This document shows, piece after piece, positions 1-64,000 of a stretch of DNA of 64,000 nt. The notes beneath the pieces are model-generated. The model saw only the letters and a program-made list of their open reading frames with translations, had not been told where the DNA came from and did not search any database. Source of the stretch: Cyanidioschyzon merolae. Its lineage: Eukaryota. Location: the NCBI GenBank assembly GCA_000091205.1, contig AP006502.2; one strand, given 5' to 3'. The position numbers were made by a program, and so were the translations under genes. Each line of letters starts with the position of its first letter. The first letter of the stretch is position 1.

Positions 1-3000
1 CATCGTACTCCGTGGGTGCTGGCCCACTACTGTCAACAGTCGCTTCAACATCATAAGCGTGGCTGCCGTTTCCCTGGAACAGATCTCGAACCGAGGCCCA
101 ACTGAAGTTTGGAACCGTGAGCGAGCTTTGAAGAGCGTACCACGGCGGCTCGCTAATTTCTGAGCTCGGCTCGCTGAAGGAGATAGAGCCCATCATACCC
201 CGGGTGCACTGCCCCTGCTGGAGCAAGTGTCGGAAGAGGTCGCGCTTCGAAAAAAGAACGGCTGTTCTGGTGCGAATCGCTGGCAGCATGTCCAACATGT
301 ACCAAAATGGACCGCTTCCATTCTAGTTGTAGCGCTGGTGCACCCTTGTTGCACCACAGATACTGTTTGTGAAGCATTGAGAAATATTCCAGTGGAAATA
401 TTTGACGCATTTGCGTAACTTGGCACTAGAATCACTTTGTAAATGTTTGTATTTTGGCAAACTGTCTTTCGGAGTATTGCGATTGATCACCTGATGTCGC
501 TGCCGCCAGCATATCGGAAGCGCTCGGCCCGGGCTGGTAAAGCGCTGTCTTGAGCCGTCCATTGCTTCCAGGCGGTACTAGGAAGTGCTCTGTCTTGATG
601 AACGGTCATCGAGCAGACGTCTACTTAGAGAGCCTGGTCGGTTTACCCCGCAGGCTCTGCTCATGGAATCGAGTTAAAGGTCTCTTCGACGCCTGATGCC
701 GTCTCGCTCTTTGGAGGGCAAAGAGCGACAACGCAGTGGACGCGGTGTACGTTGTTTTTCCCTAGCCGAGACCCCCACTCGCTATCTCCAGGCTTGTAGC
801 AGTGGCTTGAATCCACCGGGTCTACCACAGTTTTCACATACACGGCGCCCCGCGGTACGACATTACTGCCGCATACCCTCCTGAGTGAGGCGTGTGTAGA
901 AGTATAGCGCGAGTGGATCCAGAGATCGCTGTTTCCACATATCTGGACCCCGGGAATCACGATAAAACGCTTTCGCACCGGAGTAGTGGTGCGCTTGCGT
1001 CCGTGAAGAGACGCACCAGGGTGCCGAACCCACACCACATGCCGCGGGATAGACGATTCTCACTAATCTTTACAAATGGAACACTCAGGATTTCTCATAA
1101 CTTGAAAACGGATGAGCGTGCACCAAGCATCTTCACTAATCCGAATCAAGGACTGCAGGCCTGCATTGCTGCACTCAGTCACGTGTTAAAGGGATTCCTT
1201 CTGGACGGCTTCCTGGGCACTGGGCACGCGACATTCTTCGGAAATACGCTTTTGAATCTCTACATCGTTGGAAATGTCTTGGACGAGAAGCATATCGTGC
1301 GTATCATCGGGGGCAAGGCGAGGCAAGAGACGCTCCTGCAAAAGAGGCGCGTTCGAGGCGAATTCACCAGCGGACACATAGCTGTGGTGCCGGCTGCTTG
1401 CCCATAGAAATCCCTCGGGCTGATCAGATGGCGGACGATGCCAGCATGCGCTGCCGCTGAGCGCCCGCCCCCCGCTACATACGATGGATCTGTAACGCTA
1501 CGCGTCGTCATGCTGCATGACATGTTTATCCTGCTGTTGCGAACCTAAATTCCGTGAATGCTACTCGTGCAGTAGTACTTTTCAAAACCATTGGCTGTTT
1601 CAGGCTATCTAACCACCACCTTGTGACCAGGATATTCGTGTCACGCTCTTTTCACAACCAGATTCAATCCAATTTTGCTGTGGTGCGCTATGGGCATGTG
1701 TCCGGTTCCTTTCACCAGCGATCCATATCGTGGCACAGTGTCCCAGATGTTGTGCTGCTCGCTTGGATTGCACTGTGTTGAACCTTACACCGAAGCTCAC
1801 CAGTGTGCAATACCGAGCGAGCAGCTCGTTCGGCAATATGCGCGCAGCGCACACTGTTCCTTTCCGTTCTTTCCGAACCCTGACTCCGTTGTGCATACTT
1901 CTTCTTCATTCAGTGCCAGGAATACTGAACTCCTCCAGAGCGCCTTATTCCAGCGTGTTTCGTAGACACGTACTTGCTGCCGACAACTCCGAGCTACACA
2001 CTGAGCTGTAATCCAGAAGATTGTCGATCACGCACTTGGCGGCGCTTACCACTTCGCCTCCACACCGCTTGACTGCGTCAACAACACTCAAAGTAACGTT
2101 CACAGGTATTCCGGCGGCAAGCTCTAGACAGTCAGGCAACACAGTCGTCAGATCTGTGTTGCACTGCGATAGGGTTGGCATGGCAGCCTCAGTGTGCCAC
2201 GCCAGGAGACTCAAACCGAGTATCGTTAAAAAAAGCAGAACATACGGATGAGCGGAACGCATGAGTTTCGTATGGCGGTACCAAGTGACTGCTACCTTAA
2301 AAGCAAAATATAGTTGTCTCGGAGATATAGACGTGTCTCGATCCCGAGCACAGAGCACAGCGGCTCCATCACGATCGCGTTTTGTGGACCTCGTTGATGC
2401 AAAATCGACACAACGAGCTGCACAGCGTATCGAGTGCTGGCTGAAACACGTCCGTGTCGCGACGGTCTTGGCGGCCGCGATGTACTGTCCGTCAAGGGCA
2501 GACAGGTCGCAAATTGTTCGACGCTACGTGATTGATGTACGGAATCGGGTGCTGCGGCGTTCGTGATATCCATCGATACGCAGGTATGTGACGACCGCTA
2601 TCCCTTAAATCTGGAAATAACCCATAAACCCAAAACCATTATTTTCGTCGGGAATAAGTGTGCGATCCATGCGATAAGTGTTGCTCTCCGGTGGTGTCTC
2701 TTTGTCAGGTGATGCGCACGGAAGCGAGGCCCTTGCACCGCGAAGTCGTCGTACGTTTGGCGAGAAGTCGAAGGTAAGCACCAAGGTTTCGGTGGTAATG
2801 TTTCGAGGATATTCGATGTTCTCGAAGATTTTTTTCGAAGTTTGCGTATGTGCCGTCTACGCTCCGGGATGCGTGCTTCATTCTGTAGGAGAAATCATGT
2901 TTGCACGTGAAGGCTGGGCTGCTCCAGATCACCTCGTATTTCCATGGACCGCTCGAGGCTACAGATGCAGTTGCGAGCGATACGTTCTTTTCCCTAGTCC

Positions 3001-4951
3001 TAGTGGGGTAAAATCAATCGCGGTACCGACGCAGAAAAGAGTCGGTCTCTCATGCACGCGCGACGTGTGATGGATAACTGCGACAGAGCGCTGCATATGC
3101 TGAGCTGCTCGTTAACTGACGCTTGCTGTTGGGAACAGTTTCATGGTGGCATGAGTTCCGTTCCTCAAGGAAGAGTTTGATGTGCTGTATCATGGTCAAG
3201 ACCCGAGAAATTCGTACGTGTTGATCCAGAGCTTTATGCCAGCTCCATGGAATTCACGTCTCCGAGTATGCGATGATTGAGCTCCCGAGCCGATGGGAAA
3301 CGAGGCTGAACGACTCGAGCATGCGGGTTGATCCGGCTTAAAAGCGCACACTTAAAATTGGGCGCACGGCAAAGGACAATACCATACACGCCGTCAGCAG
3401 CGCTATTCAAGCAAGAGAAATCCAACTGCTCTGTGACACAGCCGTCTGGCCCCGGAGCTATTTACGCCGGCAAGCGGATACCACACAGATGCGCTGGCGG
3501 CACTGTCCGATGCATCCATGAGGATATGAGTACTCCAAACGAAAGCATGGACGTTGGAACGGGAGCCTTGCAACCAGAACAAGAAACGAGAGCCCGGTTT
3601 GGTCGCTGCAGTTGTTTGCAGTTGAAGAAAGGTCTGCAGTGAGGCGGCGGACTTTAGAAGCACAGGGATCTGTAAAATACTTGACCAGTCAATGTACGTT
3701 GTAGCGTCCGGCAAACGCGATACGCGAAGCCCGCCAGGAAAAAGGATAACACTGCAGATACACCGTACTGCGATATCGTATCCATCACAGCGAATCCGAG
3801 AGTCCAATCAGGCAGGGTCCCGTTTCCGCGGGAAACGCCGCGCAAGATATCAAGAACGCCGTGCAGACGACGTGATCAGGGCAGATACGTACACCGAAGC
3901 GTGGCTGCCAGCCATGCGCTCTTGGAGGCATCAGCAGTGTGCTCAAGTAGTCGTGACGCATGTCTTGGCTTCGAAATAAGTTCTGGGATTATCAAGTTGC
4001 GTGGATATGTATCCATTGAAATCTTGAAGTGAAATGCGGCATTCCGTTAGGGTACACAACGCCAAAATAAGCGTTCAAAGCGCACGCGGGTGTCCTGAGA
4101 GGCACGGTAGATGGCCCCGCCGTCGTGTCCTCGCACCACTGCAGCAGACGAGGCCGCTTTATTGGGAACACGGTGCCTAGCGTGATCCAGGCTGTTTTAT
4201 GCAAGAGAACATACCTGGTCAACCTGCCTCTGATTCGCTTCAGGAAACCGTCAGACTTGGCAGCATCAGGCTAGTGCGCGCGCCACGTGACTGCTGGTGT
4301 GGTAACCAGCAGCGCTAGTCTCTGCTCCGTTTCCAATTTTATACAGTGCGAACTTCTGCCTTCCTGGATGCGGATCAGCAGCTGTTTCCTTCCACATGAA
4401 ACTTAAGCGGCCAGATCAGAAAAGCATTTCATCGGTTATCAGCACCTTTATACGGAGTTTAGGGGTTCCCGTCTATGCTACCGTCGAAAAAATCATCATT
4501 TGCTGCACCGCCACGTTTTTTCAAAGTGCCCCCAAAACAAAGCTCCGACTAGCGCAGCTCCGTTTCACTCGCGTGCATCGCTGGACACGTCCGCTACGTG
4601 AGGCACCACGCAAACCTTGCTGCACCTCAGCATAGCGGAACAAAAGCTTTGACTTCAAACTCGACTGGTGCGCGCAGAAACAGTACGGACATTATGCCTT
4701 CGTCGACGATGTGCGCAGGCCAGCAACTAGACCAATACGCGTGCGCCCCAAACGGATCCAGCTGCGAAATGTATAATACTATATATTCACGAATATAAAT
4801 GTACTTTTCTTGACACATCCGCGGCGAGCACGGCGCGTGGCGTCGCGCACCGACTCCTCATCGTTTGTCCTAACGCTGGTAGACGAGTCTACAGTTCCGG
4901 GTATACGCGCTTTGCGAGCGTATTCCACGAGTGAGTCGCGTAGCGCCAAAG

Positions 4952-6224: not shown

Positions 6225-9159
6225 GCGATGACCCCGTCGTCATTCCATTCAAGTTCTTGAGGCGAATTCCGCAACACGAGCACGTCCACGACATCCGGGA
6301 TTCAGTGATGCCCACCACATCCACATCTAGAATTTCCCTCAACTTCTGTTTGATCGCTCTCCATGCACCGAGCGTACGACGGGATATCGGACGCTTAACT
6401 CCCTCACCCTAGTTTCCGAACTCACTCCATGACCGTCTTTTTGCCACTTGGCACAAGAAGGAGGTGCAGACCCCCTGGATTGCTTTCGGTTCGAAGAAAA
6501 CGTAAATAAAGGTCCTATCCAGGAACGGAAGCGCGTTTGTGGCCTCGTCTGACGTCCAATCTTTGAAAATCTCGTACATACGTGCTCTCAGTGTCTATAA
6601 AAACGGAAAGAAACAAGCATGTGAACTGGGTCAATATTCGCAAGATAGAATCTTAAGCATGTGGAAGTTCGCAAGCGCGTTCGCTACGCCTTGCAGCAAG
6701 TTGGCCTGGAAGACTCAACAAGCGAGACGACGGATTGCATTCTTTCTCGATTACGATCTCGTATGAAGGAGTTCTGCTACAATTTGAGAATGTGAACTTT
6801 TCCTTGGGTTACTTGTGCCCGTTTGTCGTCGTTTGTCTCCCCGGTGGAGTCGGGCGGCACATTTCTTCTGTATACCAGAGGATGTGTTGCACGTGTCCCG
6901 ACGGAATCGTTTTTTCCAGATGAAACGCACCTCCAAACGCTAATCTGGTCGAGAGACCCCAAGATTCCAGATAAGTTTTTCGTTGTTGTAGAGGACGTTT
7001 TCCAGTTTTCAATGCGTGGTATTTGATGCGTCTTGCGTCGACGCGTTTGCGTACATCACGCCGATGGAGTGCATGTCTATAGACCGACGTGCAGACGTCT
7101 CCCCGTCTTTTTGGACCAGCCACCTACTACTGGTTTCAACTCCTTCCCGTACAGTTCGACCCTGAGGGGTTGCCCCATAAAGCTGGATCGCGTCAGTCCC
7201 AGGGGTCTTCTTTGCAGCACCGCATATCAACTGACATTGATGGCGGCTTTGAAGTCTCGGTTCACAAATTCCATGCGTTTCTTGCTGGCGCCGCTGCTTG
7301 TACTCACCAGTGTAAATCATCCTCGAAGTCGTGGCGTCAGTGCTACACCAGTATCGTCGTCGCCGTCCCGTCGGGCAAACACCATTACTGGACTATCCCC
7401 CTACTTCGTCTTCGCCACTTGCTCTTTTCCGCTCGATGGTCGGCGAAAAGGGGAATTTTTCGTTTCCTTTCCGGGAGCCGGCGATGATGGCCCTTCAGGA
7501 TCCCCGACTTTCATATCCATACCTTTTCCTTGGGGTTTATCTCTTCAAATGAACGCACTTCGAACGCGTCTGCTATAAACCGCGAATAAGCATTTGGTGA
7601 CGCACATCTGGATGTGAATCACAATCGAGATGAAATCCATAGCATTGAACTCCTGTGCCATCGGAGCACCGCGAATGTCTGGCACGCGAGGCGCCCAGGG
7701 GACTGAGGTCCGTCCGCCCTACACCAGGGTTGCTGACCCGAACGCTGCGTACCGGAACCGCGAAGGAGCTTGCCAACTCCTTAGTCAATAGTTTGGTTGG
7801 GTTGTATTGGCGTACGCCATATTCGCCTGACTGCGTTGCAAGGTAGCGTAACTGCTTTTGAAACGGAGCTAGCCCTGGTCCATGGTTCGAACGTTGCGGG
7901 CGTGATGCGCGGCCCCATGCCCCGGAGGTTTGCCATTGAGGGCTTCAAGTTCTCGCTCAATTTGATCGTACCGTTTTGCGCTGTTGTGTTCTTTGGTTCC
8001 AGCGATCACTCCTGGCTCGAGCAAGCTGTCGAGCGGTGGCGCTACGTCCAGTATCCCGTCAACGAAGAGTCAACGCTGACCTCCGCTGAAATCACAAGAA
8101 GGGTGTTTAAACAGCCGAAAACCGGGGCAGCTGAGGACCATCGAAAGTGAGCGAGTCTCGCGAAAGGGCGCCGCCCTTGCGCCTTCCGGAAGACACCCGT
8201 CTGGTCACTCCCGATGAGGTTCTGCAATGTTGCTGACGATCTCAACAGCAGGATGCGTGGATGGAAGCGTGGGCTTGCATGCTCGTCGATACCTGAAATC
8301 GAAGAATACCCAGGCCTGCGCAGATAACAGCATCGGTTCAGAAGCCAAAGTCGCAGTCTCCAAAAGCAGATAAGAAATGACCTCGGAACGGCCGGCTGTC
8401 AGACACAGGCACCAGCCACCGCATATCGAAGAAGCTCGCTGGCCTCTATTAGACATCGTCATCTTACCCGAACGCTCACATCATTCCTTGTGAAAAAGCC
8501 ATGGACAACGTAACGCCGAGATCGAGGCCTCTGTGCTGCATAATGCTTGCAACGAGCACGTTGGTAATGTCTGGTGTCAGCGATTTCTCCCAAGCGCCAC
8601 AAGAGATAAACGATTGTATCTCAAGAGCTCACATATAGGGAACGGCTTGCCTCGTTCAGCGCTCGCTTCGAAATATTTTTAGCCCTGTCTGCGAGGCGAC
8701 AACGCGTATCGTAATGCAGATTTTTCTCTTCGACAGAACCTTGGCACAACCTAGCTATCCCCGATCGCAGCGCCTGTTCGCAGCGCACAGGGAAGCATCA
8801 ATCGTTCCACCTGCTTCCAAATTCCACAAGCCGTGCTTTCCCCCGAAGGAACCAGTAATTTTTACGCCATATCGTGCGCCGAGTGCATGCTGTGAACACC
8901 AGCCGTAGCGCCTAAACCGCTGGAGCAGGTGCATCACGGAGACGGAACTGCTCAGGCGCACCACTGAATGCGGTGCAACCAGGGCCACCAGCAGACGCTG
9001 CCTAAGCATCATTAGTCCCGGAATAAACCGCTTTGAAGACGAGTAGAGCAGGTCTCGCAACAGCACCTGCCACTGGGGGGATGGGTATGAAGCACGAGCC
9101 TGGGAGACTCGTCCGGCTCGCTGGACATTCCCTCGAGAATGTAAAGTTTCAGCAATACG

Positions 9160-11770
9160 GAAACCTTTCCCCTTTTTGACGTTTATCGTAAATGGGGAAC
9201 GAAATTGTTATATCGTTGCAATTAAGTCGTGAGTCTCTGTTCTTTTTCCTATAGTGCGATCGATAGGCGCACCTGGGATATCTGGCAGTCTCGAGACACG
9301 ACGCTCACGTCACCGTTGAAGGGGAACGCGATCCTGATCGTTATTATGTTGCTCTAATGTACGAGTAGTAGTTACTTTATAATCGTACCAAATTATAGTT
9401 TTTCAGGTCTATTGTGTTTCAGCCCTCAGGTTAGTATACTCAAGTGTTTTTTCGCGGTTTATGACAGAAGCGTTCAAAAAGCGTTCTTGTTCAAGAAACT
9501 AGAAAAGCAAAGTTATGGAAGAGGAAATGGAGGAGCATGAGGGCACAGCGTCGCCGGCTGCCAGAAAAAAACGGAAAGCATGGCGGAGCAAAGAGGAACA
9601 GGAAAAGACGAAGACGCGGAGGCCGGAGGCCCTACGTCGAAGGCAGCGATAAAGACGACAGTACGACGAGACGGCGGTAAAAGCCTGTCTTCTTACGCAT
9701 ATCAAGGATCCGTACAGGAGAAACCTGCGAGATGCCATCAGAAACCGAGTCGATTCGTACTCCAGGAGTGTTCGTAACGCCTCTTCAGGACTAATGCATT
9801 TGGTGAAGGAGATGTATCGCGACGTGGTGGATTCGAAACCTTCGAGATTACGGAGGAATTTTTCAACATGACCTTTATTCGCCACCTGATGGTTGGCAGA
9901 GGGGAAGCGTCGAAGAAAATGAGCGAGTGGAAGCCCTCCACAAAAAATTACGCCAAATGCCGCGTCGACGCTACTCTATACAAGGTTGATGCGGATATTT
10001 ACACCTACGGTGCGATGAAGAACCATTTGACCATGAACCTCAAACGCTTCATGATACGCGCCGTGTTTGCGCTCTACCCGGGCCTGTCTCGTAGAGGAAT
10101 ATGGACCATCGCCAATTGCATCACAAACGATAGTAAGAATGAACGGGGATCGAATTCGTCGACAAGATGACATCACACGGGAGAAAGAATAAAGATTCCT
10201 TCATCCGCGCGGCTATTCAAGAGCACCGTTCGGTCTTGGGGCTTGTCAACCCAGCAGAAAAGGTATCAGATATGAAAAAAAGATGGAGAAAGATGTTATC
10301 TCCTCATGCTGCGCTATTTCGTGTTTTTGACCGACGCCTCGAACGCAAAACAGAGATGGAGGTAGGTGCGGGACACAAAAGCAGAGTTGGAGCAACGGAA
10401 GGCTACCCTTCAGGCGAAGCGCTTCAACGTCTTTCGGTTATGCAACATCAAGTCGCACTTTGTGAATATCGACTGCAGAGTCGTTCATGGCATCATGAAG
10501 GATATCTGAACGGTGCTCGGTGTAAGCAGGGAGGAGTTCACCGGGGAAAACCGGGAGACGTACTGGAAGCATATCTTCGGCTTCAAACGTGTCAAAACGA
10601 GCAAGCAAAAGTATGCATAGGCATCAGCGAAAGCGATGGAGTAGCCACATGTGTACACTATCAGCGCCTTAGGGTGAATCGTCCTGTTCCGTCTTCAGTA
10701 TCGCCAGTGGCGAAGCATGAGGGAAACAAGAAGGCGGGTCCTACGACGCAGGAGGTGCGGGAGCATGACTTTGTGGTAGGCGCGAACCCCGGAAACACGA
10801 ATATCATGACCATCACAGTACCCAAGCTTGCGGAAGATGGTATTGAAGGCAACCTATGTCAAAAAGACACGCGTTTGTAAGGTTCTAAAGATAGAGACAT
10901 TACTGAGAATCGGGAATAATGAATGCAAGAAAGAAAATTGAGACATGGAATGCACGAGTGAGAGAGCACCTGGAAGCTATGAGCGAGGTGACGAGCCGAG
11001 GAACGGACTTTGGAGCTTTTCGGGAGTTTATGGATGTTCGTGTTGCCCATTGGGATGCACTGTGGGAGGAGTATACCAAGCCCCGGTGGGCTCGTCTGCG
11101 AAAGAATTTCTATTGTGGGAAGCAGCGGGCGTTCGCGAATTTTTTCAATCAGTTGAGTGCCCCGAAGGGGGACGAGAGTCAGAGGCTCGTAGTAGCGTAC
11201 AGAGCAGGGCGCTGGAAGATTCAAAAAGGGTGTACGCCAGCTCCAACGACGAGGGTGTACAAGGAGTGCGCACGTCGTTTCGTTACAATACCGATAGATG
11301 AGTTTCGAACATCGTATACACACCATGAGCTGGGTTGTACACTTCAGAGAGTGGAGATGCAAAAGTGCCAGAGGAGCCCTGAGGATATAGCAAAGTACGG
11401 AGCGCTGACGGAAGAGCAAATGGAAAGGAAGGCGAAAGTTCGAGGGCTACTCGCATCAGTGAATACAACGAACGGGAAGAAACGGATGGAATTCGTGAAC
11501 CGAGACTTTCATACCCCTATCAATATCAGGAGATGTGCAGTGCTGGAGAAAAGACCTCCAGAGTTGACGAGAGCCAACTTTGTTCGACAACCTCTCGAAG
11601 TCGATTTATATGAGAAGAAGTTGGAAGCAGTAGTAGGTGGCCGGTCGAGAAAAACGGGGAGGCGTCTGCACGTCAATTGGCGACTTTTTGTCTAGGGCGG
11701 GTTTCTCGCCACTACTGTACACCGCGGGTATCAACGTTTTTCTTCTGAAAGGCGTTTGTTTTCAGGAGTG
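9160..11770 (+). mobile_element. Compositionally distinct island carrying a Fanzor/TnpB-like gene relic; putative eukaryotic IS605/IS607-type element remnant. Boundaries are approximate.
   Basis: GC drops to ~40% in 9160-9520 and ~48% across the ORFs, against ~57-60% in flanking host genes; contains a RuvC-like TnpB/Fanzor homolog; no clear terminal repeats found. Confidence 0.4.
9515..11695 (+). pseudogene. Fanzor/TnpB-like (OrfB_IS605 superfamily, RuvC-like) gene, disrupted. N-terminal K/R-rich NLS-like region at 9515-9649 ends at an in-frame TAA, then the reading frame changes near ~9860, ~10150 and ~10900.
   Basis: ORFs 9868..10170, 10167..10880 and 10919..11695 are consecutive in different frames. 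The TnpB-like RuvC-I block reads VVGANPGNTNIMTI where GxDxG is expected. A YKECARRF..IDEFRTSYT..C block corresponds to the TnpB YK..G..vv.VdP.yTSq.C block. A RuvC-III-like NRDFHTPINI is at ~11498-11527. The N-terminus reads MEEEMEEHEGTASPAARKKRKAWRSKEEQEKTKTRRPEALRRRQR. Confidence 0.55.
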
Positions 11771-11771
11771 G

Positions 11772-13799
11772 ATGTCTTCCAGCAACACTGGGGTTCGTGT
11801 GCCCGCAGCCGCAAGTGACGTAGAAAGCACGGACACCGGCTATGAGCAGGATGAGGAGCAACTACCGAACCAGCAAGATAGTGAAGCAACGGATCCGGAA
11901 GTTCAGTTTGATGGCGGTACCGATTGGCTGAACTCTTCAGAGGCGGAACCAGTGGAGCTGTCGCGAGCGTATTCTGCTCCAGAGCCGCTGGATGAAGGGC
12001 CCAAACCGAACTTACTGGATATTTCATCTGCGTGGGGTCAAGACTTTGTAGAGCGAGCTGATTCCGAGCTCGAGAGCTACGCCGAGGAGCACCCAGGCCC
12101 TGAAGAACACGGAGCGTCGCAGCAAGAGAGACAACGTTCCAGGTCGTATCTGAGAGCGCTACGAGCGAAGATGGACCGTACCTGGCGTGCAGACTGGACA
12201 CATCGCCTGGGACGCACACTTGACGGCACGGTGGACAGAGCCCGGCCCTACTGGCGCCACCTACGAAGCTCGAGCGGCCTTCGACGTCGGGTGCTTTCTC
12301 GTTCGCCGTCGATGCTCCTTCAGAACCTGAACCACAGCCGCAAAATCATCGCTCGCAAGTCCGTGGAAGCAGCTTCTGAAGCTGCCGAGTTTATATCGTC
12401 ACCAACGCTACTATTCCGACCTGCCAAGATGGCGTTCGCTATTGCGTTCCCTCTGCTCATACCGCTGTTAATCACCCCGTGGCGGATTCTGTTGATCCTC
12501 TTCGTTTTTTACGCCGTCTGGTATCTTGTGGTCGCCGCGATTTTCGCAACAGAGGTGATGATGCGCCCGCCCTGGTACCGAGTTGGACTAGGTGGGCAAC
12601 TGCCGATGGTGGAGATCCCTCCGTACTGGCGCGGCGTTTGCCACAATCCGAAGCAGGATCTCCAGTTGGACTACGTTTCGGTTTCGTTTGAGTCTTTGCA
12701 TCCGCCTCGGCGGACACTGCGCGGCTGGTATATCCCCGCGGAAAGCACTGGAATGACTTTCGAGTCTGGGTCCGAACAGTCAGCCCCTGAAACGGGTGCA
12801 GCAAAACCCAGCGAGGCGAGCAGCGCAGACGCACCGAATCCACATGCAACAACACCGTCTGGTGAGCACGCGACGACGAGTCGCAGCCGAGGCACAACTT
12901 CGACGGGTCGGACCTGTGTAGTCTGTGTGCACGGGGCAGGTCGAGATCGCCGAAACTTCCTGCGCCACGCTGGCGCACTCCACCGCCACGGTTATGATGT
13001 GTTGCTGTTCGACCTCAGCGAGCATGGTCTCAGTGACGGGTCTGGTCGAGGAACCACTTTTGGTGCTCGAGAAAAATATGATGTGCTGGCGGCTATAGCG
13101 TATGCCTACAATGCCCTGCAAGCGGAGCGAATCGTTCTTCTGGGGACTTCAGCGGGAGCCTCTTCCTGCCTGCTCGCAGCAGCTGAATGGATCCGTTTGC
13201 ATCGATTCCTGAAACTGCAAATCGTCGGGCAGCGGCACGAATCATCGCAAGCGCTTAGTGAACAGCATTCTCTTGATTTCCCGGTACAGTGCATCATTGC
13301 AGAGAACCCGCTGGCCCGACCTGACGAACTCTTTATCTTCCATCTGGAGCGCCTCTCGCTCAACTACCTGCCAAAAGATTCGTATCATCTTGCGCGGAAG
13401 ACACTCTTCTGGTTTGCAAGCAGAGTGCTGCTGTTTCGTCTCGCATGGGTAGACCGCGAACCGAGCGCCGTACCAGGGTCTCATTTGCGCCGGCTCTGGG
13501 TAGTGATCAGCACCCTCAGTCGAGTGCTCGGAGGACGGACGCGCTGCGGCGCAGTCGACGTCATGACCGACATTCATTGTCCGTTGTTCGTTTTGCACGG
13601 CACCGGTGATGAAATCGTGCCCGTCGACCATGGCATGCGCATCTTCGCAGCGGCTAACGAGCCCCGTCAGCTGTGGCTCGCTCCGGACGCGGCACACTGT
13701 GCCCTGTTCGATCAGTATCCAACTGAGTGGGAAAATCGGGTTGTGGATTTTATCGAAAAGAGCCTGAGCGAAGAGTCGAATGCGAAATCAAGATCCTGA
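11772..13799 (+). CDS. Membrane-anchored alpha/beta-hydrolase-fold protein with acidic disordered N-terminus, transmembrane segment and C-terminal esterase/lipase-like hydrolase domain.
   Basis: HGAGRDRRNF...GYDVLLFDLSEHGLSDG matches the HG..fD.rGhG.S pattern, GTSAG is a nucleophile elbow, and VLHGTGDEIVP and AAHCAL fit the Asp and His sites. Hydrophobic stretch AFAIAFPLLIPLLITPWRILLILFVFYAVWYLVVAAIF. Start taken at the internal ATG 11772 because the 11637 start overlaps the upstream ORF. Confidence 0.7.
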   Translation: MSSSNTGVRVPAAASDVESTDTGYEQDEEQLPNQQDSEATDPEVQFDGGTDWLNSSEAEPVELSRAYSAPEPLDEGPKPNLLDISSAWGQDFVERADSELESYAEEHPGPEEHGASQQERQRSRSYLRALRAKMDRTWRADWTHRLGRTLDGTVDRARPYWRHLRSSSGLRRRVLSRSPSMLLQNLNHSRKIIARKSVEAASEAAEFISSPTLLFRPAKMAFAIAFPLLIPLLITPWRILLILFVFYAVWYLVVAAIFATEVMMRPPWYRVGLGGQLPMVEIPPYWRGVCHNPKQDLQLDYVSVSFESLHPPRRTLRGWYIPAESTGMTFESGSEQSAPETGAAKPSEASSADAPNPHATTPSGEHATTSRSRGTTSTGRTCVVCVHGAGRDRRNFLRHAGALHRHGYDVLLFDLSEHGLSDGSGRGTTFGAREKYDVLAAIAYAYNALQAERIVLLGTSAGASSCLLAAAEWIRLHRFLKLQIVGQRHESSQALSEQHSLDFPVQCIIAENPLARPDELFIFHLERLSLNYLPKDSYHLARKTLFWFASRVLLFRLAWVDREPSAVPGSHLRRLWVVISTLSRVLGGRTRCGAVDVMTDIHCPLFVLHGTGDEIVPVDHGMRIFAAANEPRQLWLAPDAAHCALFDQYPTEWENRVVDFIEKSLSEESNAKSRS

Positions 13800-16547
13800 T
13801 TCGGCCCTATGCAGTGCAATTGCTTGACAAATGCGAACGCTTCAGCTGAGCGAAGGACGCTTGCACCCGGCAGATACGCAAGGGCCGCACCACAGACCCC
13901 GGCAAGCGCCTCGTGCCGCAGGCCCGTGCTGCGACACCGACGAGGTACTGGGAATCTTTCGAAAAGGCTCGTGCGTGACGAGCTATGCGACGCTGTACCG
14001 TTCTGAACAGAGGGCAGCACGAATCCAGGGATATTGGCGGGAATGCCGCGTTTTGTGCACGTGCAAGCCGTCATGCTTGCGTGCACTCGCACAGAGACAA
14101 CACCATTGATCATCGACGTTGTCGTCGGTGGTCGCTTCCGGTCACATCAATAGAATCCACTCGAATTTCAATACGCTTGAATGCTTCGTGGTCCGGAATC
14201 GCTCCGACATTGTCGCCGAGAACCTCGTACACCAGGAATCAGAGCCGAAGCTTGTCAGTCGACTCACGAAGCAACGAATTAGTTTCCCGCTTGGCGATGA
14301 TCGTGGACAATATTCCAGAGTGCAGCGCGTTGCTGGGGCAGCTCTTAACAAACAAAGCACATCCAGCAAAGCTACTTGAGCGGATGCAGCACAATTCTCG
14401 GGTCCGATGCAGCGCCCGGAGCATGCACCACCGTCCACGGGCAGGCACCTGTTAACACTATCGCCCAGAGCCTGCATGCACTTCACAGGCGCTTTGCCGG
14501 TTTCCACGAGTCGAAGCTCATGCAATGCCAGGCATCAGGAGTACGTGGTGGCGACAACAGCTGCCTTGCGTCCCATTCGCCAGGGTCGTATCAGGGGCTG
14601 TGGCCGACGCTTCGTTCCAGCGCCTGGGCTCGTGTGCCATCTGCTGCCACAGCTGAGCTGTCGTGCGTGTGCTCAGAGTCACTGGGCACGATGCTTAGAT
14701 GTAGACAACGATACATTTGGTTCCGCACATCCACACAGTCGCACTGCGTTTCCCAAAGCGGATGACGCACATCCATGCCACTGGTCGCAGTCTGCGCACG
14801 AACAGAACAATCAGTAGTTATGGTGCCGGTGCCAGCGTCCGCAACCTGATGTCTATCACACGTACGGCTTGTTGTAGGCAGTGCAGGCATGTTGCCACAT
14901 GAGGATTCGTACCCGTTTCTTGGATGGGCAGAAAGCGAGCGTGAACGGGGCATCCCCGAATGCACGTCTGGGATCAACGACCGGGAAATCGTCCAGCATT
15001 CCGCGCACTATCTACCTCGAACTTCCACTACCCGTACTTGCCCTCGAAGATACTGGTCATTTCGTATGTTTCATCGTTCGTCGAGTCTACCTTGAGCGTC
15101 CGTCATAGCGTCAATGCGAACGCAGCTCGGAAACCGACCGGTTTTGCTTGCATCCGCGGGAGAGCGCACTATCGTCGCCAACGGTGTGCGAAGTTGCCTC
15201 GCGACTATTTCACTACCGCGGACAAGCACTTCATTCGACACGAAAGTGTAGACATTCTGTGGATCATGGCGACTGCTGCGGGTCGCTTCATGCGGTCGCA
15301 TGTGCTACTAGCTCCGTTTGGCGCACCGGAGCTCCAGGGCATCGGGTGTGAGAATCTGTGCAAGTTCGCATAAAGAGTTGGAACGTATTGCCACAGCGTG
15401 CTGTAGAATTTGCGACTACAGCGGTTCCGGCTTCGTGAGGCATTCCAGAAGCTGCTCGTGCCGCACGAACGCGATGTCAGCGTTATCGCTTCTAGCGCAG
15501 AGCACCTGCGACTACCACGCACGGAACCGAACTCCAGGTTCAGTAGAAACAACAGTTACAGTCAAAGGGACACGGACCGTTCAGACCTTCCGGTTGATCC
15601 GTGGCCAGCTCCTCCAGGCTAAAGACTCGATAGCCTTCCTCGGTTCGCGCTGATCGCGTTCGTGAAACTGGCGATGCTGCGTCCACACGCGAGTGTCTCC
15701 TGGGCAGCTGCTTCGTATCCTGCTTCGTCAGCGTTCTTTGGACTCCGATACGACCATCTTTCTTGGGAGTGTTGCCGAAGCGACGGAGGCTCCGTTCCGG
15801 CTTTCGATTGCCTTGGCTGCTTCGCGAACGTTGAGCAGCCGCGTTTCGCGTCAACTTTTTTGATGACTCGCGAGCGCGTTCGAACAATTCATCGAGCTGT
15901 TGTTGATCCTCTTGTGGTGGCCTGGAAACTGCAGGAGCTAGCCCCTGCTTCATCACAGCAAGCTTGGTGCGGGATCCGAACGTAGAAGCGCCCCAAACGA
16001 AAACAACGATACAGCAGTGACGGCGACTACAACCGTTGTACGGCAAGGCGCCAGGCTTAGCGTAGCGCGTTGCAAGCCGACGACAGCATTGTACGACGTT
16101 ACGACAAGCTGATCATCAATGCCCACAAGGAACACGTTGCTCTGGACTCTATTGTATTGGAATTAGGCTCGTGCTGGATATCGCGTATGAAAAGCGCGGG
16201 TTCAGGGGAGCTTCGATGCGCAGCAGTTTCCGTCTTTGCTGTACAGATCCCCTGGAGAAAAAACTTGTTCAACGCTGGTACATGCGACCTCCTTTTGCTA
16301 ACGCGGCGTTCTGCTTTACCCATTCTTACAGTTCAGCATGTTCCTGTACCAGAGTTCCAGCTTGCAATCGACCGCGCAACGTGGGTCGGCTGCTTCATCC
16401 CAATAACGATGCAGAACACGCGGTACTTGCGAATGCTGCAACGCGCTAACCCTCACGTTCCTGTCATAGATGCGTATGCGCTGCTGGTGGCACCGCAGTA
16501 CGGCGTCTCGTCCAGGTCATGAAGTGAATGTGCAGAAGAAATGGCGC

Positions 16548-22313: not shown

Positions 22314-25300
22314 CCAAAAGTTTTTTACCAAAAGGAATGTATCGTAAAGACAAAAGTCAGAGTGTTCGCGAAAGAGCCTTATGCTGTGTCTGCTAGATAG
22401 CAGAAATTGGCCTCACATGTGTTGGTCAGTCGTTGTCGGGTCAGCAGCAGCATGATCCCCGCTAATTTCAGTCCTTATTCTGAACATTGATCACTCAAAA
22501 CAGCATGTATCAAACGTGTTCCACGCGACCGTCTCCTTGTCAATCACTTCCATTGCATACGTTCGCCAGGAAATGCAGTCAGACAAGCCACCAGGTGTGA
22601 GAATTTCATATCCTAATTCTCTACGGTGATCAAGGGACACGGGTTGGCAGCGAATGCAGCACTGATACCGCAGAACATCCCGTGTTGAAAAACCCACCAA
22701 CTTTTTTTCGAACTACGACGCGAACTATTATTATGAAAGGACCATGTGTTCCTCTCACTCGATTACATGTCATTTGGACGAGCTGCTAGACCTCGATACG
22801 GCCAGTTAAATCAAGGCAAACCCATGTTTGTCAAGAAGAGACAAGCGAGCATTCGGACAACACCAGCCCTGGCAGTGTTCGAATCATGCGGTCGCCTGCA
22901 AATCGCCAAACGAACAGGGTCGTTCAGCACCTCTTCCTTCTTCGGAACATGCTTCGTGGCTTCTGCTTCCGCAATCTTCTGCCCTGGTCGTAGACAAGGT
23001 CGCTTTGCATCACCATAAAGCGGCAAAGGAGTATCCTGATAGGATAGGCTTTGAGCTGCTCTTCGTGCGACGCCATGCTCTCTGGTTCAGTCCCATTCAA
23101 GGCATGCGTATTGATGGCATACGCCTCTTCTGGTCTCGCGGATCACTAAACGGGGCCTATGCATCCGTGACACCGAAATATGCAATATAAAATATAGGAC
23201 TGCGAAGTTGCTTACTCATGCAAGTCTCGTCGAACTCCGTTCGCTTTGATGCACCTCGTCAAGCAACGATGAACAGCCGTTCCAGAGGCCCGACTGCCAG
23301 CGGCCCCATTCCTCAGAATACTTTCCATCAGACGCCCGTGCGACTACACATCTGATGCTCGGGACAGGAGATGCAAGCGGTCTGGTCATTGGATCAGCAC
23401 TTTGAACACGCACTTCCCAGAAAACCCTGACGCCTCGCTGCGACACCACGGCGATCGATAGACCCACAGCGCAGGTGCTCTGGAATCTCATGCCAACCTC
23501 GAGCCGAAAATCAAATGTTAATGAAAGACGAGCGCTTCGCATGGAGCGCCATGTGGGCGTCAGATCCTCGTCTTACTTGCCCAAACAAGTGGAGACAACT
23601 CGGAGCGGCGCCTCTGGTGTGGATCGAGGCAAATGACCAGTTGGTGTGAAAGAAATAAAAGTGGCAGCGACCTTGGGCGAGAGATGTCGCAACGAGAGTG
23701 CGCGTCGCTTCAGATCGTCTACGCCCGTGTGCTGCTCTCTGCTTCGCAATGATGGATGCCGTATTCCGAGAATAGATGAAATCTGGTGCCTGCTTTGCTT
23801 GCATTTTCCGCTACGGTATTTTCGTGGACCGAACCCGCCAGAAAGAAAGCAGATCCAAGCTCTCTATGCCTACGTCCTCGCTTTCTGAGGCAGTTGTTCA
23901 AAATGATCCCCTCTTTGCCAGACCGGGGCCCATTCGATTCCCGTCGACACTTGTTCCCTGTAATGTACACCCTGCTCCTTGGGGTGCTTCCGGTCTACAC
24001 AACCAAGTATGACGCGATCGAATCAATCCACATAGAGCATCGGCGCAGCTGGTTCAAAGTCTCTGGTTTACAGGGAGGAAATCGGAACCAGTCTACAACG
24101 ACGACAGAAACCGATGTCATTTCCATCTGCATGCATTTTGTTGTGAAACCTAGGCCTAACTCGACCAACGATACCCATTTTTTAACCGCTCAAGCCCGAT
24201 ACAGGGAAAAGCTTCGATAGATACGCGTGGATCCTGAGTTTCGGAACATCACACCCGCTACCGAGCGCTTCATAATCCAGGAAGTAGCCTAGGACACGGA
24301 CGGAAAGCAGATCAAGTTGTTCGACTTTTCCAAAACTCGATATTTCCCGAGTTGCCGCTCGACTGTAACGCGCGGAGGCGTACCAACAGGTGAACTGGCG
24401 GCGTCAGAGCCCAGCTCAACGCCCTGAGCACCGTTTCGAGCGGACACGGATGTTGTACGATTCATTCATACTGTACGTGGGCGTCCAAATGGCTCATGTC
24501 GATGACTTATGGCAGAAGGATATGCACTTGCGCTGGTGTCGGGAACGATCCCGGCTGTACGGAGGCAGCTAGCGTGTATCCACCGACTTTTCAATGCGTT
24601 GGAAACGCGTATGACCGATATGGCGCGTCGTTCGGTGGTGGCATCTTGCGCTGGACCTGTCGCAGAGCACAACGTCTGCAATCGTGCTCCTTCGACCAAC
24701 GTGTGCAACAAGCGTGCGGGCCGATTCTGCACGACTTTTATCGATGCGTCTAGAATGACATGACACACATCACGAACTTTTGTGCGCGAAGACGCTTTTA
24801 GAAATGAAGAGCGTGAAATAGCGCCGGATGCATGAGACGATGTATAGGGCAGGCTGGCCGAACCTCAGATGGCGAGGCACTCGTATATGAGAGGCTCGGT
24901 ATGGTGGGGCTTCACAGGCAACAACGCTTGCCAGTAGGTTCTCAACGGAAACTCTAATGCTTCGGTGAACATCTGGAAATATCTCGTGCTTTCGAAGAGA
25001 TTCGGGCGGGTTCGTATCTAGCGAACGTTCCAGGTAAGCATATAATGCGAGCGCGGGCACGATGCTGAGACGCTGAAGACGTGCGATGACAAAATTTATC
25101 CAGCCAGGAGACAGGGACAGAGAACACTGGATTCTTGCCTGGTGCGACGCACTCTAGCGGCACGTCTCAGCAATCCAGAACGGCTCTAACGCCGCGTATA
25201 TACAACGGGAAATGTTGTCCTTGGCAATTGGTGTGAATGATTACGGCGTTTCGTTATTCAGCATTACCAAATATATCCTATCTGATTCCAAATACATGTC

Positions 25301-37700: not shown

Positions 37701-39238
37701 GCGTGCACCTATGTGTGTGTGTGTGTTCGTGCATCGTACAGCGCGCTCGCCGAAACGCTCGCCCAGAAGAAACCCCTGATCGCAGGGTACAGGAAACCGC
37801 TTGGAAACGGAGGAGAGCATTGAGTGGTTCCTTCTGTATCGGCCAAGGGCATCTGTCGAGCGACGAAGCGAGCGTTCACGCTACCCAAAGCGGTTCTCCG
37901 AAAACGGAGTGTCATGGACGTTTGAGAATACCTCACCACAGCCAAGTGGCACCACTGTGAACTGCGCACTGAGCCTGTATACAAGGAGGATAGGAGTAGC
38001 GAGCGGAGCGCAGGTGCAGCTTCCGCCCTGGCGTGAAATACGAACAAGACGGCCAAAAGTGCCACGGCTGGACTTTATCGCCGCGATGAACTCCCGTCGA
38101 CGGCTGACAATGAACCCGGAGAGAATTGTACGGCCGACGGTTGCAACGCAGGATACAACAGGTCACAAAAGGAAGCATGCACATAAAAATACCGCCATGG
38201 CTGCTGTGCGCAGCAACGAAAAAAGACCCAAACTTTCCACGCGAGCTCGCTGCCCGGTCCCATTTTGTTCCTCGTACGGGTGTTGCGCGGCGCGTTCCGC
38301 ATGCAAGGCCGCCGTTCCTTCGAAGCAGATCGAGCGAAATCTGGTAGGCGGACAGCACATGTCGCGGGCCTCTGACGTGTCCCCGCTCTGATCCTGATGA
38401 GCGTTTCGCTCGATCGCCTCAGATGTTCCAATCGAATGTCGTGGCAGCCTACAGCGCGGCGATCGTGGCGCGCACGGCGAAACGTTTCGTCCACAAATAG
38501 AACCGTAGTTTCACCTGAATTATGTTCCACCACCAGACGCGTGTCCTCAAACGCTTTTCGCGGTTTATAACAGATACGTCTGAAGTGCGTTCATTTGATA
38601 CAATATAAAATCTGAAGGATCGTTATGGACATGGAAGACGGGGATTCTGGATGGTGGTTGTCATCGCCGAGTTCGACCAGGAAATCAAAAAAATCCTCTT
38701 CTCGCCGACTATCGAGTGACCAGGGGTATGTGATGAAGAAATTGGAGAGAAAGGCGAGAAAAGGTGCCTGCCCGACGTGACGATGACGGGACTTCCGTGA
38801 TTCAGAGGGCGCGAGTTCGACGACTGCGTCTAAAGGTGCGTTCTGGCAGTGACAGGGAACGCACAGAGTTCGTGCACCCAGACTTTAACGCAGCGATGAA
38901 TACCAGGTGATATGAGGTATTGCACACGCGACCCGACGAGCAGAGACGATCCACCAGCTTTGTCGGGCAGCCTTTCGGAGTCGAAGTGTGCAAGGAGAAG
39001 CTGAACCCGATACAGCACGGGGGCCCGTCGAGACAACCAGGAAGGCGTCTGCAGTTGCGAGTCATATCGACCCTCTGTGGTCGTGAAACGTTTTTCGTTT
39101 TATCGGACAGTGAGAACCGGACACGTGTCCGCGTGCGATCGCAAGCGACTGGCGTCGCATCGTTTTGCGATACGCTTGCCAGAATCTTTTCGAATTCTTG
39201 TTCTAAACGCGTGCATTATTGTGCGTTACAGGGATACA

Positions 39239-57186: not shown

Positions 57187-59625
57187 CATCCGGGGCAGCG
57201 CGAGACACCGAATAGGTGGCGGGAGCATCCGAACGAGCCCCGTGGTATCTCAACCTGGGGCAAGCGCTGGCGAGCCCATTCAGCTGGGTCCTTGATCGAC
57301 GACAGCATCGCCTGCGGTGACGTGTTATACGCATCCAGAACTGCAGCGTGGATCTGGGCGAGACCCATTACGTACTGACATCCCGGAGCGAATGCACGAT
57401 GTAGCCACGCAGTGCTCGGGGATGCTTCTCTTCCACTGTTGGGGTTCGTTCGACAGAGGCGTGCGCTCCCAGCTTGCCCTGGACGAAAAGGCGGCGCGGT
57501 TCCACGTAGACTCTTTGAGGAAACCTGTTGCTTTGTTCTGGCGACGTAGGCAAAGCTCCATGCTCTGTAGCGATATTCTAGCGGACATGTGGTATTTCGA
57601 GAACGCGCATGTCGCTGAATAGCATCCAGGTCGTCATCATTGCATGCAGCTCATAAAGATATTCCATCGCATCGAGTTTTGCCCGTGGACTGGCCGACGA
57701 GGTGCCCGCAGCGTCGGTACCAGCCCCCAGCGTACTCCATCGGGCGTTGTGTGGCACTGGATGCACGTTTCCGTTGGGTATACCCATTTCGTAATCGAAT
57801 GGAATGGACCTACGAAGTTAACTCAGGTGTACATGCGCAAAATTTGGATTGCTTCGCACTGTGATCAACAACAGCCTTTGCGGGCGTTTCCTGCCACTGC
57901 TTCCTTCTCCTCTCGTATTCTGACTCGAAATACGCCGGTCGCTCTGTTTCTTCCAGCACTGTTGGATGCAGTCAACGGATGTTTATGATATCTTTAGGGC
58001 GCCCCGATGTTGCTGCGTCTGCCAGCTGTTGGGCACGAATCCCATGCACAGGCACGAGCAGCGGTCTACGCTTCCCTTGTCATTTTCTTGTTCTTGAAAT
58101 GAAGCTTCGGTGCGCGGTTTGCCGCGATGACACTTGACTGCGGTCAGGTATTGCCGTACTTACTCCAGAACGCCTCCTTCAAAGGCCTACCCTCCGGCGC
58201 TCGAACGCTCCCGTTGATGGGCTCCTCCTATGCCGGCACCCGGTGCCGTGCCCTGCGTCCGGGGGCTTGTTCTTGGTAACCGCCTTGGCGAACGTTCTTT
58301 TCGCTCCATTCGATGACGCAACCTTCTTGCATGCTTTTCATTTTCTAAAAAAGCTTTCGAAAACTATGCCGATGAGCGTTATGAGGGTCGAGGTGCCCTG
58401 CCCACACATAGGCGGAGTGTGCACGTTTTCCACCAGCTTACGATAAAGTAGCCACGGCTTCCGAGACGCTCTGGGGTTTCACTCGCACATCGGACCATGC
58501 CCCGATCCGGTTTCTTCCGCTGAGACGAGTATGATACGCGTGCAAGTGGAGCTTTTGACTATAGACGCCATTCGGAGTGTTCGAAACTCGTGCCTCCAGA
58601 GCATTGTCGTTTACCAATGGCGGAGATGGATCGGACGCCACTGCGGATTTCGCAGAAGCGCAGGTGCCAACGTTCGCTCTCCCCGCGTCCGGGCGTGCGC
58701 CAAGCGCACCAGGGCGCAACTCCGAGAAACCACACTTCTCTACTGCTTGACATACCGCCAAGTGTCTCCTCTTGTGCGCTATGTGACTGTCGTGAGGCAT
58801 CCAGCATTTTCGCACTCGATGATGATCGACAATCCCTGGTCATCAATCATAATGGACGACAATGCATCTGCTCGCTATAGAGCAAATATCCCTTCCCTCC
58901 CTTTTTGATTGTCCTTCACACCTTCCTTCGCCTTCCGTCGTTATTCGTTCCTCCAACTGCTTCTGAGCGCCTTCGAGGCTCTGGGCGAAACGTGCCTAGT
59001 TCGGATTCTGGGATTCGGGGAAGTTCGGCTGCGTCTGGGTATCGCCCTGTTCGCGATGGACTCCTAGTTGATCGCTTCGCGCTCTCGCAGGCAGTACGTC
59101 TGTCTGTACGACTTGCAGGCTCCGAAAATGAGTGTGTACTCCGACCCCGTATCAGATGAAGCATTCGTCGAGCCGACGCCCTCAGTATTACGGGAAAGCC
59201 CTTCCATTTCCGTGATGCAGCGGCACCGGCGGCATAGGCGCTACAGCGGACGGTCAAAGCAGGCACTCTGCTCTCGATAGAATTTACGAAACAACCAGGA
59301 CATCAAGCAACAGGTGATGGAACTTTCAGGTAAGCTGCAGCATAATCATGAACGCTTTTTCGATTATGAATACCCATCTATCCCACAAACTGGGATATCC
59401 ATAGTCCATCGAGCTCTTTCATCATTGGTAAAAAAGATCACCGCTGCCGTCGCTCAGCCGACGCCTCCGGGCACCGCGGCACGAAACGGGACGTCTCAAT
59501 CAACGTTTTCGTTGTGCTGAGACAACGTATCCGTCGGATAAACGTGTTTGACACGAGTGCGTTTCAGCTGTCGTTCGCATAAACCATTCGAAACAAGGCA
59601 CGAGAATACTCAACTCTGATTACCC

Positions 59626-62729: not shown

Positions 62730-64000
62730 TCAGTTAGCAAGAGCCAGGGACACCGCAGGTTTCGCCAAAATACGTTGGGACGTTTCTGGGGCGCGGCAGT
62801 TGTCGCTGGGGAACTGCTTCGAAAGCGAATCGCAGCATTGAGGCGCAGCACGCTGCCACTCCTCGTGCCTTCGCTGCTGGAACAGAGCGATTTCTCGGGA
62901 GCGGCTTATAAAGTGCCCCGTAGGATGCAGAAGACTGCTGCATCTCGGAACACGCTTTACTATCGAATGATAAGGAACACTTGTCGTTCATTAACTGTGG
63001 AGGGAAATCGTTTCTGGTCCACGCACCTGTCTATATACGGCGCTGCAGCGTGCCTGCATTGCTGAGTTGTACCGTGCAAGTGCCTTGCTGCAGGCGCGAA
63101 GAGAACGCCGCCTCCTCTGACCAGTGATTTTCGTCATAGAAAGCCTTTGGGGTTTCACGGCAATGTCCGCACGAAGCACGAGACGATTCGATCGAGTCTT
63201 CGCCGGGCACCACGTCGCTGGACGCTCCGAAAGCATGAGACCTGTTCGAACGCTGACCAAAGCGTTCAAGTCTCGACGCAGAGCGTGCTTGCGCGCATGG
63301 TTGCAGGAGGAATCACGCCAGAGCAGGGTGCTCACCTTCGATATCCTCGCGGTCTGACAACCGTGTAGCGTATCAAACACAATATCTGGTGCGTCCGTCT
63401 CTAGCTCATGCTCTGCCTCTCTGCCCGTTTCATCATCCTCCTGTGTTCTTCATTCGCGGATGTTGTCCTGCACGCAACGATGGGCATCGTACAGAATCGA
63501 TGCCTTTGCTCGTTCGACGCTGCCCTCTAATGAGCAGTAGTGCAGGATTTTTGCGATACACCAATTCTAGCGCCAGAGGCTACCAAGATACGATACGACT
63601 CGTCGGACATTTTCCGCTACAACGCATTGAGCGATTTGGAGGACGCACGCTTTTGGCGTCCGCACAACAGACACCGTTGCGTATCCTAGCGGTGTCGTAT
63701 AGACTCTGGTTAAAGCTCCTCTGCATGAGCCATTTGGACGCTAAGGTACTCCCCGAATAAAGCGTACAGACCATGCTGCTTGGCCCCGTGCGGAGCCCAG
63801 TATGTCGAGCCTAGCCCTGTCGCCGTCGTTTCTCTAGTTGGAATGCGTGCCGGCGTCGAGCAGGCCTGTCTTGTCACTATGGAGATCGCTGGAAAATATG
63901 AGACGATTCATGTTGGTTCCATTCTGGTTATCGGTTCCGTCCTGTTGATGCTGAGGTACGGCGACGACGATGATGCCCTGGCACCCGGGATCCGTGCCCT

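Follow-up and report, generated by a model that had tools for sequence, protein, structure and literature searches.

A decayed copy of the Fanzor1 element CMe-1A in the nuclear genome of Cyanidioschyzon merolae 10D

Fanzor proteins were named by Bao & Jurka (2013, Mob DNA 4:12; PMC3627910), who listed a single Fanzor1 family, CMe-1A, for the red alga Cyanidioschyzon merolae. They put CMe-1A at about 150 copies, each with about 80% identity to a consensus of 3169 bp, which encodes a Fanzor1 protein of 734 amino acids (aa); it is without terminal inverted repeats (TIRs), its target site duplication (TSD) was not determinable, some copies are still intact, and its 5′ 635 bp are common to TE-N2_CMe (PMC3627910). 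Here, a locus at about 8728-11768 of a 64,000-nucleotide (nt) stretch of C. merolae DNA (contig AP006502.2; the whole stretch is called the window below) was compared with this family. The region is almost certainly a dead CMe-1A copy, one of the copies of an old multicopy repeat of the C. merolae 10D nuclear genome that carries a Fanzor1 gene. For C. merolae, the family has been known since 2013, along with its copy number, the Fanzor1 protein that it encodes and the lack of TIRs and TSDs, and the novelty implied by an earlier sequence-only reading of this DNA did not hold, since the family had been described and phylogenetically placed in C. merolae by Bao & Jurka 2013 (PMC3627910).

The window copy shares with CMe-1A the genome, the layout with a single open reading frame (ORF), the 5′ non-coding region and the 3′ tail. 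In a global alignment, consensus 1-3169 corresponded to window ~8728-11754 with 84% nucleotide identity over aligned columns, in line with the published value of about 80% per copy. Compared with the consensus, the window copy has nine frameshifts, five stops and a RuvC-I Asp-to-Asn change, and it has lost about 120 bp within consensus 226-366; in addition, a comparison of copies suggests about 10 nt more at each end of the element than in the published consensus. The locus is longer than the 9515-11695 first noted, with a repeat unit running from ~8728 to ~11768. With respect to the host, six window proteins were 100% identical, from end to end, to C. merolae 10D RefSeq proteins, namely RuvBL2 (XP_005539403.1, 478/478), hydrolase XP_005539386.1, MDHAR, IDH, carbonic anhydrase and AK-HSD, whose genes share a single contig of 1,621,617 bp. 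These exact matches ruled out an oomycete, Nannochloropsis or thraustochytrid as the source, which had been considered earlier. Coordinates are window positions on the + strand unless stated otherwise, lesions are given relative to the 3169-bp CMe-1A consensus, and the consensus DNA and protein used for comparison were taken from the supplementary files of PMC3627910 (protein: additional file 3). The features of the locus are as follows:

8728-11768 (about), + strand: degraded near full-length CMe-1A copy, Fanzor1-carrying, without TIRs
8728-9514, + strand: non-coding 5′ region, corresponding to consensus 1-905 and including the 635-bp segment common with TE-N2_CMe according to Bao & Jurka (PMC3627910)
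9515-11695, + strand: Fanzor1 pseudo-ORF, equivalent to consensus ORF 906-3110 (734 aa)
9560-9649, + strand: K/R-rich N-terminal stretch ARKKRKAWRSKEEQEKTKTRRPEALRRRQR, resembling a nuclear localisation signal by composition only
9650-9652, + strand: premature stop 1, consensus GAA (Glu46) changed to TAA
9831-10874, + strand: frameshift-bearing span with nine 1-nt indels and an 18-nt in-frame deletion, from the consensus alignment
10507-10509, + strand: premature stop 2, consensus AGT (Ser338) changed to TGA
10886-10906, + strand: cluster of three premature stops (at 10886, 10892 and 10904) in the conserved RFSRARYYRESG segment
10919-11695, + strand: longest ORF still open (258 aa), spanning the C-terminal third of Fanzor1 without RuvC-I

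After frame repair, the window protein (726 aa) was 74% identical to the published CMe-1 protein in a codon-by-codon comparison, and the consensus counterpart of the K/R-rich N-terminal stretch reads GKKRKTVPSPEEQEKTKKQKREARRQRLQ. The ORF pieces begin at 9515 (frame 2, given as coordinate mod 3), 9868 (frame 1), 10167 (frame 0) and 10919 (frame 2). All four pieces with these frames, the quoted motifs and the TAA at 9650 were present as the sequence-only reading had given them, and the frame switches that it placed at ~9860, ~10150 and ~10900 correspond to 1-nt indels at 9831, 10144 and 10874. Its account of the damage was correct for these three frameshifts and one stop, but six further frameshifts, four more stops and two deletions had been missed. 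The complete set of 1-nt indels lies at 9831, 9916, 9942, 10144, 10275, 10326, 10369, 10610 and 10874, including two compensating pairs (9916/9942 and 10275/10326), and the in-frame deletions relative to the consensus comprise 18 nt at 10015 and 3 nt at 11471. In the stop cluster, codons 465 (TCG to TAA), 467 (GCG to TAG) and 471 (CGA to TGA) were affected. Because 1-nt indels occur at both 10369 and 10610, the true frame between them is 1, and therefore the 237-aa ORF at 10167-10880 is not a single coding piece and is partly a chance ORF. Neither ORF, that of 258 aa included, was among the annotated proteins of strain 10D.

Two other causes of the lesions were considered and rejected. An assembly error as the source of the frameshifts and stops was rejected because an independent Yellowstone assembly has the same lesions, and an explanation of the frame changes by introns was rejected because each of them results from a 1-nt indel when compared with the consensus, and none comes with a GT...AG interval.

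The related metagenome contigs were from a few JGI projects, one of which (Ga0078972) is a Yellowstone metagenome. A Yellowstone contig (L001) was 99.4% identical to the window over 8500-14000 (5.5 kb) and differs in its lesions only by two additional 1-nt indels; since the lesions are common to both, the copy was already dead when the Naples (10D) and Yellowstone populations split. Between the window and L001, 23 differences fall in the element (7.6 per kb) and 5 in the hydrolase coding sequence (CDS; 2.5 per kb), and the 258-aa ORF differed from its Yellowstone ortholog by three synonymous and five non-synonymous substitutions, which are small counts. The substitutions appear to fit neutral decay, with no hint of selection.

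For the assignment of the protein to Fanzor1, a profile of close copies was searched against 1.84 billion representative proteins, yielding 1511 relatives, many of them intact and 600-700 aa long, from which 63 diverse representatives were sampled and aligned (alignment A2). The A2 profile matched three solved Fanzor1 proteins in the PDB, from Parasitella parasitica (9cf0, E = 3.4e-21), Spizellomyces punctatus (8gkh, E = 6e-12) and Guillardia theta (9cer, E = 2.5e-7), and in these matches the RuvC-I, RuvC-II and RuvC-III motifs were in register. Window 10874-11596 scored 238 bits against the A2 profile (E = 6.5e-74), and three upstream window segments (9596-9838, 9835-10617 and 10554-10823) were also significant. 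With the frame-repaired 726-aa protein as query, the nearly complete relative P0121 (752 aa) was retrieved, whose precomputed Pfam label was only DUF8286. The Fanzor1 fold, with REC/WED and a split RuvC, was tested on P0121, as an intact relative 55-76% identical, rather than by modelling the window pseudogene itself. With A2, the AlphaFold2 model of P0121 reached a predicted local distance difference test score (pLDDT) of 82 and a predicted template modelling score (pTM) of 0.80. In a Foldseek search of this model against the PDB, the top seven matches were Fanzor1 chains (E 1e-16 to 2e-13, probability 1.00) with target-normalised template modelling scores of up to 0.74 against Fanzor1, and Cas12, TnpB and Fanzor2 appeared only at E values of at least 3e-3. 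With the shallow close-copy alignment A1, the AlphaFold2 model was uninformative (pLDDT 40), and the A1 profile gave nothing relevant among PDB sequences, the alignment being too shallow. The Fanzor1 identity is established on both sequence and fold.

The proposal made from the sequence alone, of a degraded gene of the Fanzor/TnpB-like RuvC family in an intron-poor eukaryote, was thereby confirmed, through the 74% identity to CMe-1, the A2 matches to solved Fanzor1 proteins and the P0121 fold. Structure prediction, one of the checks suggested with that proposal, supported it when carried out on the homolog P0121, for which the top seven PDB matches were Fanzor1. The suggested profile check gave a mixed outcome: the Pfam models alone (OrfB_IS605, Cas12f1-like_TNB) were not significant and would by themselves have yielded a false negative, and the comparison of A2 with Fanzor1 was significant.

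The catalytic motifs of the window copy are listed below:

10773-10814, + strand: RuvC-I block VVGANPGNTNIMTI, read from the translation
10779-10793, + strand: RuvC-I motif GANPG, in which Asn replaces the catalytic Asp of the family motif GADPG
11258-11281, + strand: YKECARRF, read from the translation
11294-11320, + strand: RuvC-II motif IDEFRTSYT, catalytic Glu kept
11498-11527, + strand: RuvC-III motif NRDFHTPINI, Asp kept, conserved NAA changed to HTP

Intact members among the close homologs read VVGADPGNTNIIT, IPVDEFRTSYTHHELGC and VNRDFNAAINIRRCA at these positions, which is the D-E-D pattern of RuvC, and in the diverse alignment A2 D484 (RuvC-I) and E656 (RuvC-II) are invariant and D725 (RuvC-III) is present in at least 90%. 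In the window copy the D-E-D triad is incomplete, with Asn in RuvC-I and the E and second D present, and the ORF is not intact, being broken by nine frameshifts and five stops. Judged from these residues and lesions, the window locus is a Fanzor1 member by descent but not a functional nuclease.

Characterised Fanzor1 proteins are RNA-guided double-stranded DNA endonucleases, whose guide RNA originates at the element's 3′ end (Jiang et al. 2023, PMC10530073). The sole gene of CMe-1A encodes a Fanzor1, a eukaryotic protein related to TnpB and Cas12 of bacteria. From this homology, an intact CMe-1 would be expected to act as an RNA-guided DNA endonuclease: bound to a guide RNA made from the 3′ end of the element that encodes it, its split RuvC domain (D-E-D) would cut matching DNA, and such cutting would help the element to persist or spread. 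The structure 8gkh, which reportedly is the Fanzor1 structure of Saito et al. from 2023, is a further basis for expecting RNA-guided cleavage. The window copy is incapable of guided cutting, with nine frameshifts, five stops and the RuvC-I Asp now Asn.

Several points weigh against this interpretation. RNA-guided cleavage by CMe-1 is expected by extension from other Fanzor1 proteins, and translation of the remaining 258-aa ORF is possible in principle. Curated Pfam models gave no significant match on the four ORF pieces and 11 close homologs, nor did NCBIfam on 3, and the best curated match, PF07282 on a distant relative, had E = 0.0023 and 18.5 bits versus a cut-off of 26.3. The clade, as represented by the 63 sequences of A2, is without the CxxC...CxxC zinc ribbon between RuvC-II and RuvC-III, unlike SpuFz and PpFz, so the activity of the CMe-1 clade could differ; a conserved VRGLLWCxST segment stands in its place across A2 (P0121 residues 656-725). 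When the terminal 275 nt of 27 copies were folded with RNAalifold, the consensus was weak, at -4 kcal/mol with little covariation. The missing zinc ribbon probably explains the sub-threshold PF07282 score and the misses by other curated models. Curated Pfam and NCBIfam are blind to this Fanzor1 clade, to which automated annotation gives no label or DUF8286, and such loci can be recognised only with a profile that covers the family's diversity or by comparing structures.

Among the alternatives, a functional or domesticated gene is highly improbable, whether its frames are joined by introns or programmed frameshifts or its 258-aa C-terminal ORF was co-opted by the host. The 258-aa ORF does survive and is 98% conserved in the Yellowstone relative, and the region is probably transcribed, since the element ends ~4-18 nt before the hydrolase ATG. 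However, the 98% conservation merely mirrors the 99.4% genome-wide identity, and the ORF is without RuvC-I and is not annotated in 10D. Its 3:5 ratio of synonymous to non-synonymous changes (small counts), at a density four times that of the hydrolase CDS, fits neutrality. Over the whole pseudo-ORF, all frame changes trace to 1-nt indels against the consensus and none has a GT...AG interval, three of the five in-frame stops fall within 21 nt, and the catalytic D is changed to N. Of the earlier suggestion of a pseudogene or a domesticated copy, the first half was upheld by the lesions, and the second found no support, given the five stops, the nine frameshifts, the D-to-N change and the neutral pattern.

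That the gene is instead a TnpB of prokaryotic type (IS200/IS605 or IS607) or a Fanzor2, gained by horizontal transfer, has a still smaller, almost negligible probability. Cyanidiales are known for horizontally acquired genes, and weak PF07282 (Cas12f1-like TNB) matches were found in relatives. In contrast, TnpB (8h1j) and mimivirus Fanzor2 (9b0l) match the RuvC core only, at E = 0.02-0.03 versus 1e-16 for Fanzor1, and the protein, at ~730 aa versus ~400 aa for TnpB, has an extended helical N-terminal part that aligns with Fanzor1. No ORF for TnpA (Y1 HUH) or a serine recombinase was found in or beside the element in the window and in L003, the contig that carries P0121, and CMe-1 is classed as Fanzor1 by Bao & Jurka. 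The remaining alternative, a chance match of short motifs in a protein of an unrelated family (some members have Pfam DUF8286 only), has next to no probability and is refuted: it drew on the lack of significant Pfam or NCBIfam matches, on the close-copy profile that found nothing in the PDB and on the first model with pLDDT 40, but the A2 profile matches three solved Fanzor1 proteins down to E = 3.4e-21 with the catalytic motifs in register, the top seven Foldseek matches are all Fanzor1 with probability 1.00, and the sequence is the basis of the Fanzor1 definition of Bao & Jurka in C. merolae.

That the locus, taken as a dead CMe-1A copy, is a dispersed repeat follows from the tblastn fragments elsewhere in the window, where at least five further family fragments were found by consensus alignment and the A2 profile. 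A search with the protein P0002 gave 439 metagenome stretches that encode a relative, and a protein search with the 258-aa ORF matched 258 protein clusters, nearly all of them unnamed metagenome proteins. Most of these clusters are fragments of 150-450 aa, indicating that most Yellowstone copies are also pseudogenes. P0121 (L003 5920-8360), the longest homolog counted as intact, is itself damaged, with a frameshift just past the start codon region and a Gln-to-stop change 37 codons ahead of the normal end. A unit of ~23 aa (KHEEKKEADPATQEVQDNDFVVDA) was observed in 2-5 tandem copies just upstream of RuvC-I in many Yellowstone copies, for example at L003 7130-7420 (P0121 residues ~385-469) and in P0004, P0008, P0052, P0069 and P0131; the window copy and the published consensus have one each, and the unit is predicted to be disordered (pLDDT <50).

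A repeat family of ~0.5 kb related to CMe-1A was also observed in the window, at 7132-7635 (- strand) and 38509-39008 (+ strand), and in the metagenome contigs L008 (6293-6444), L018 (7687-7791), L040 (7873-7999) and L072 (7874-8000). Its members consist of consensus ~835-970 (5′ leader and ORF start) joined to ~2840-3092 (the last ~250 nt), with a segment of 130-150 nt without a consensus match at the junction, and the two window copies are colinear with 67% identity. From this make-up, the family looks like an amplified non-autonomous deletion derivative that retains the 3′ end. Two divergent Fanzor1-like remnants, at 23177-24602 (+ strand) and 63138-63757 (- strand, possibly extending to 63998), have ~27-38% aa identity and were detected only by the family profile or tblastn. 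Since a single C. merolae Fanzor1 family is listed by Bao & Jurka, they may be relics of older, unreported Fanzor1 families. An isolated fragment at 59005-59409 (- strand) covers consensus 19-417 only with 77% identity, a part that is common with TE-N2_CMe according to Bao & Jurka.

The 3′ end of the window copy contains the following features:

11696-11768, + strand: 3′ terminal non-coding tail with short hairpins, GGCG..CGCC directly after the stop
~11733-11754, + strand: terminal stem-loop CGTTTTTC-TTCT-GAAAGGCG at the 3′ terminus of the element

Comparison of ~30 copies (L004-L083) showed that the copies run 9-16 nt beyond the published 3′ end, with an extra tail of the TTTGTTTTCAGGGG or TTGTTGGTG type that is absent from the published consensus; in the window copy this tail is TTTGTTTTCAGGAG, ending at ~11768. 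A T-rich run of ~10 nt precedes the 5′ end in most copies. The 3′ stem-loop of the copies has 8-10 bp (CGTTTTTC-TTTT-GAAAGRCG), and one subfamily has a different perfect hairpin of equal strength instead (CGTTCGA-CTT-TCGAACG), so that the hairpin is kept in two sequence versions, which suggests that the hairpin itself matters. No TIR relation was seen at the ends of ~30 copies by inspection, with no formal TIR search run. A second gene was not found within the shared 2.5-3 kb in the ORF maps of the window copy and L003, and Rfam matched no family over the whole window.

With neither TIRs nor a TSD, the 3′ end appears to resemble the ends of Helitron or IS200/605-type elements, or a terminator or guide-RNA element. 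There is a small chance that the CMe-1A family, as distinct from the dead copy, moves or acts through its conserved 3′ terminus, for which the shared terminal stem-loop with its replacement hairpin and short tail, the absent TIRs and TSD, and the 0.5-kb derivatives, with only a piece of the 5′ leader and the 3′ end, are cited. The conserved terminus would fit a single-strand, hairpin-guided (Helitron-like or IS200/605-like) transposition of a Fanzor1 element; alternatively, it would fit a scaffold for an omega RNA that is more compact than usual, in a Fanzor1 clade without zinc ribbon. Neither is known to have been described for C. merolae. CMe-1A has neither TIRs nor a recognisable TSD, and its unit contains no transposase gene.

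On the downstream side, the ATG of the alpha/beta-hydrolase XP_005539386.1 lies at 11772, ~4-18 nt past the element tail, and the arrangement is the same in the Yellowstone contigs L001 and L002. Since the tail abuts the ATG, the promoter or 5′ untranslated region of the hydrolase must lie inside the decayed element.

As a discovery, the locus has little weight, because the family is published and the copy is an inert relic; the by-eye recognition of a frameshifted Fanzor from its RuvC motifs proved right. C. merolae, a genetically tractable alga with a tiny genome and ~150 copies of the element, some of them reported intact, could be convenient for studying the role of Fanzor1 in a transposase-less transposon.

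Compared with systems outside C. merolae, the CMe-1 family differs from TnpB (ISDra2, 8h1j) and Cas12f in that it is twice as long, eukaryotic and nuclear, has no TnpA partner and stays below the Pfam thresholds, and its fold matches to them span only ~270 columns at E ~0.02. It shares with them the RuvC core, a RuvC-III motif of the NRDxNAAxNI type and a weak PF07282 match at the equivalent position. The CMe-1 family is only 12-15% identical to the solved Fanzor1 proteins SpuFz1 (8gkh, 9ceu-9cez), PpFz1 (9cf0-9cf3) and GtFz1 (9cer-9cet) and has no zinc ribbon, but the overall fold is alike, the split RuvC D-E-D is in register, and the conserved FxGxIxTDG segment before RuvC-I aligns.

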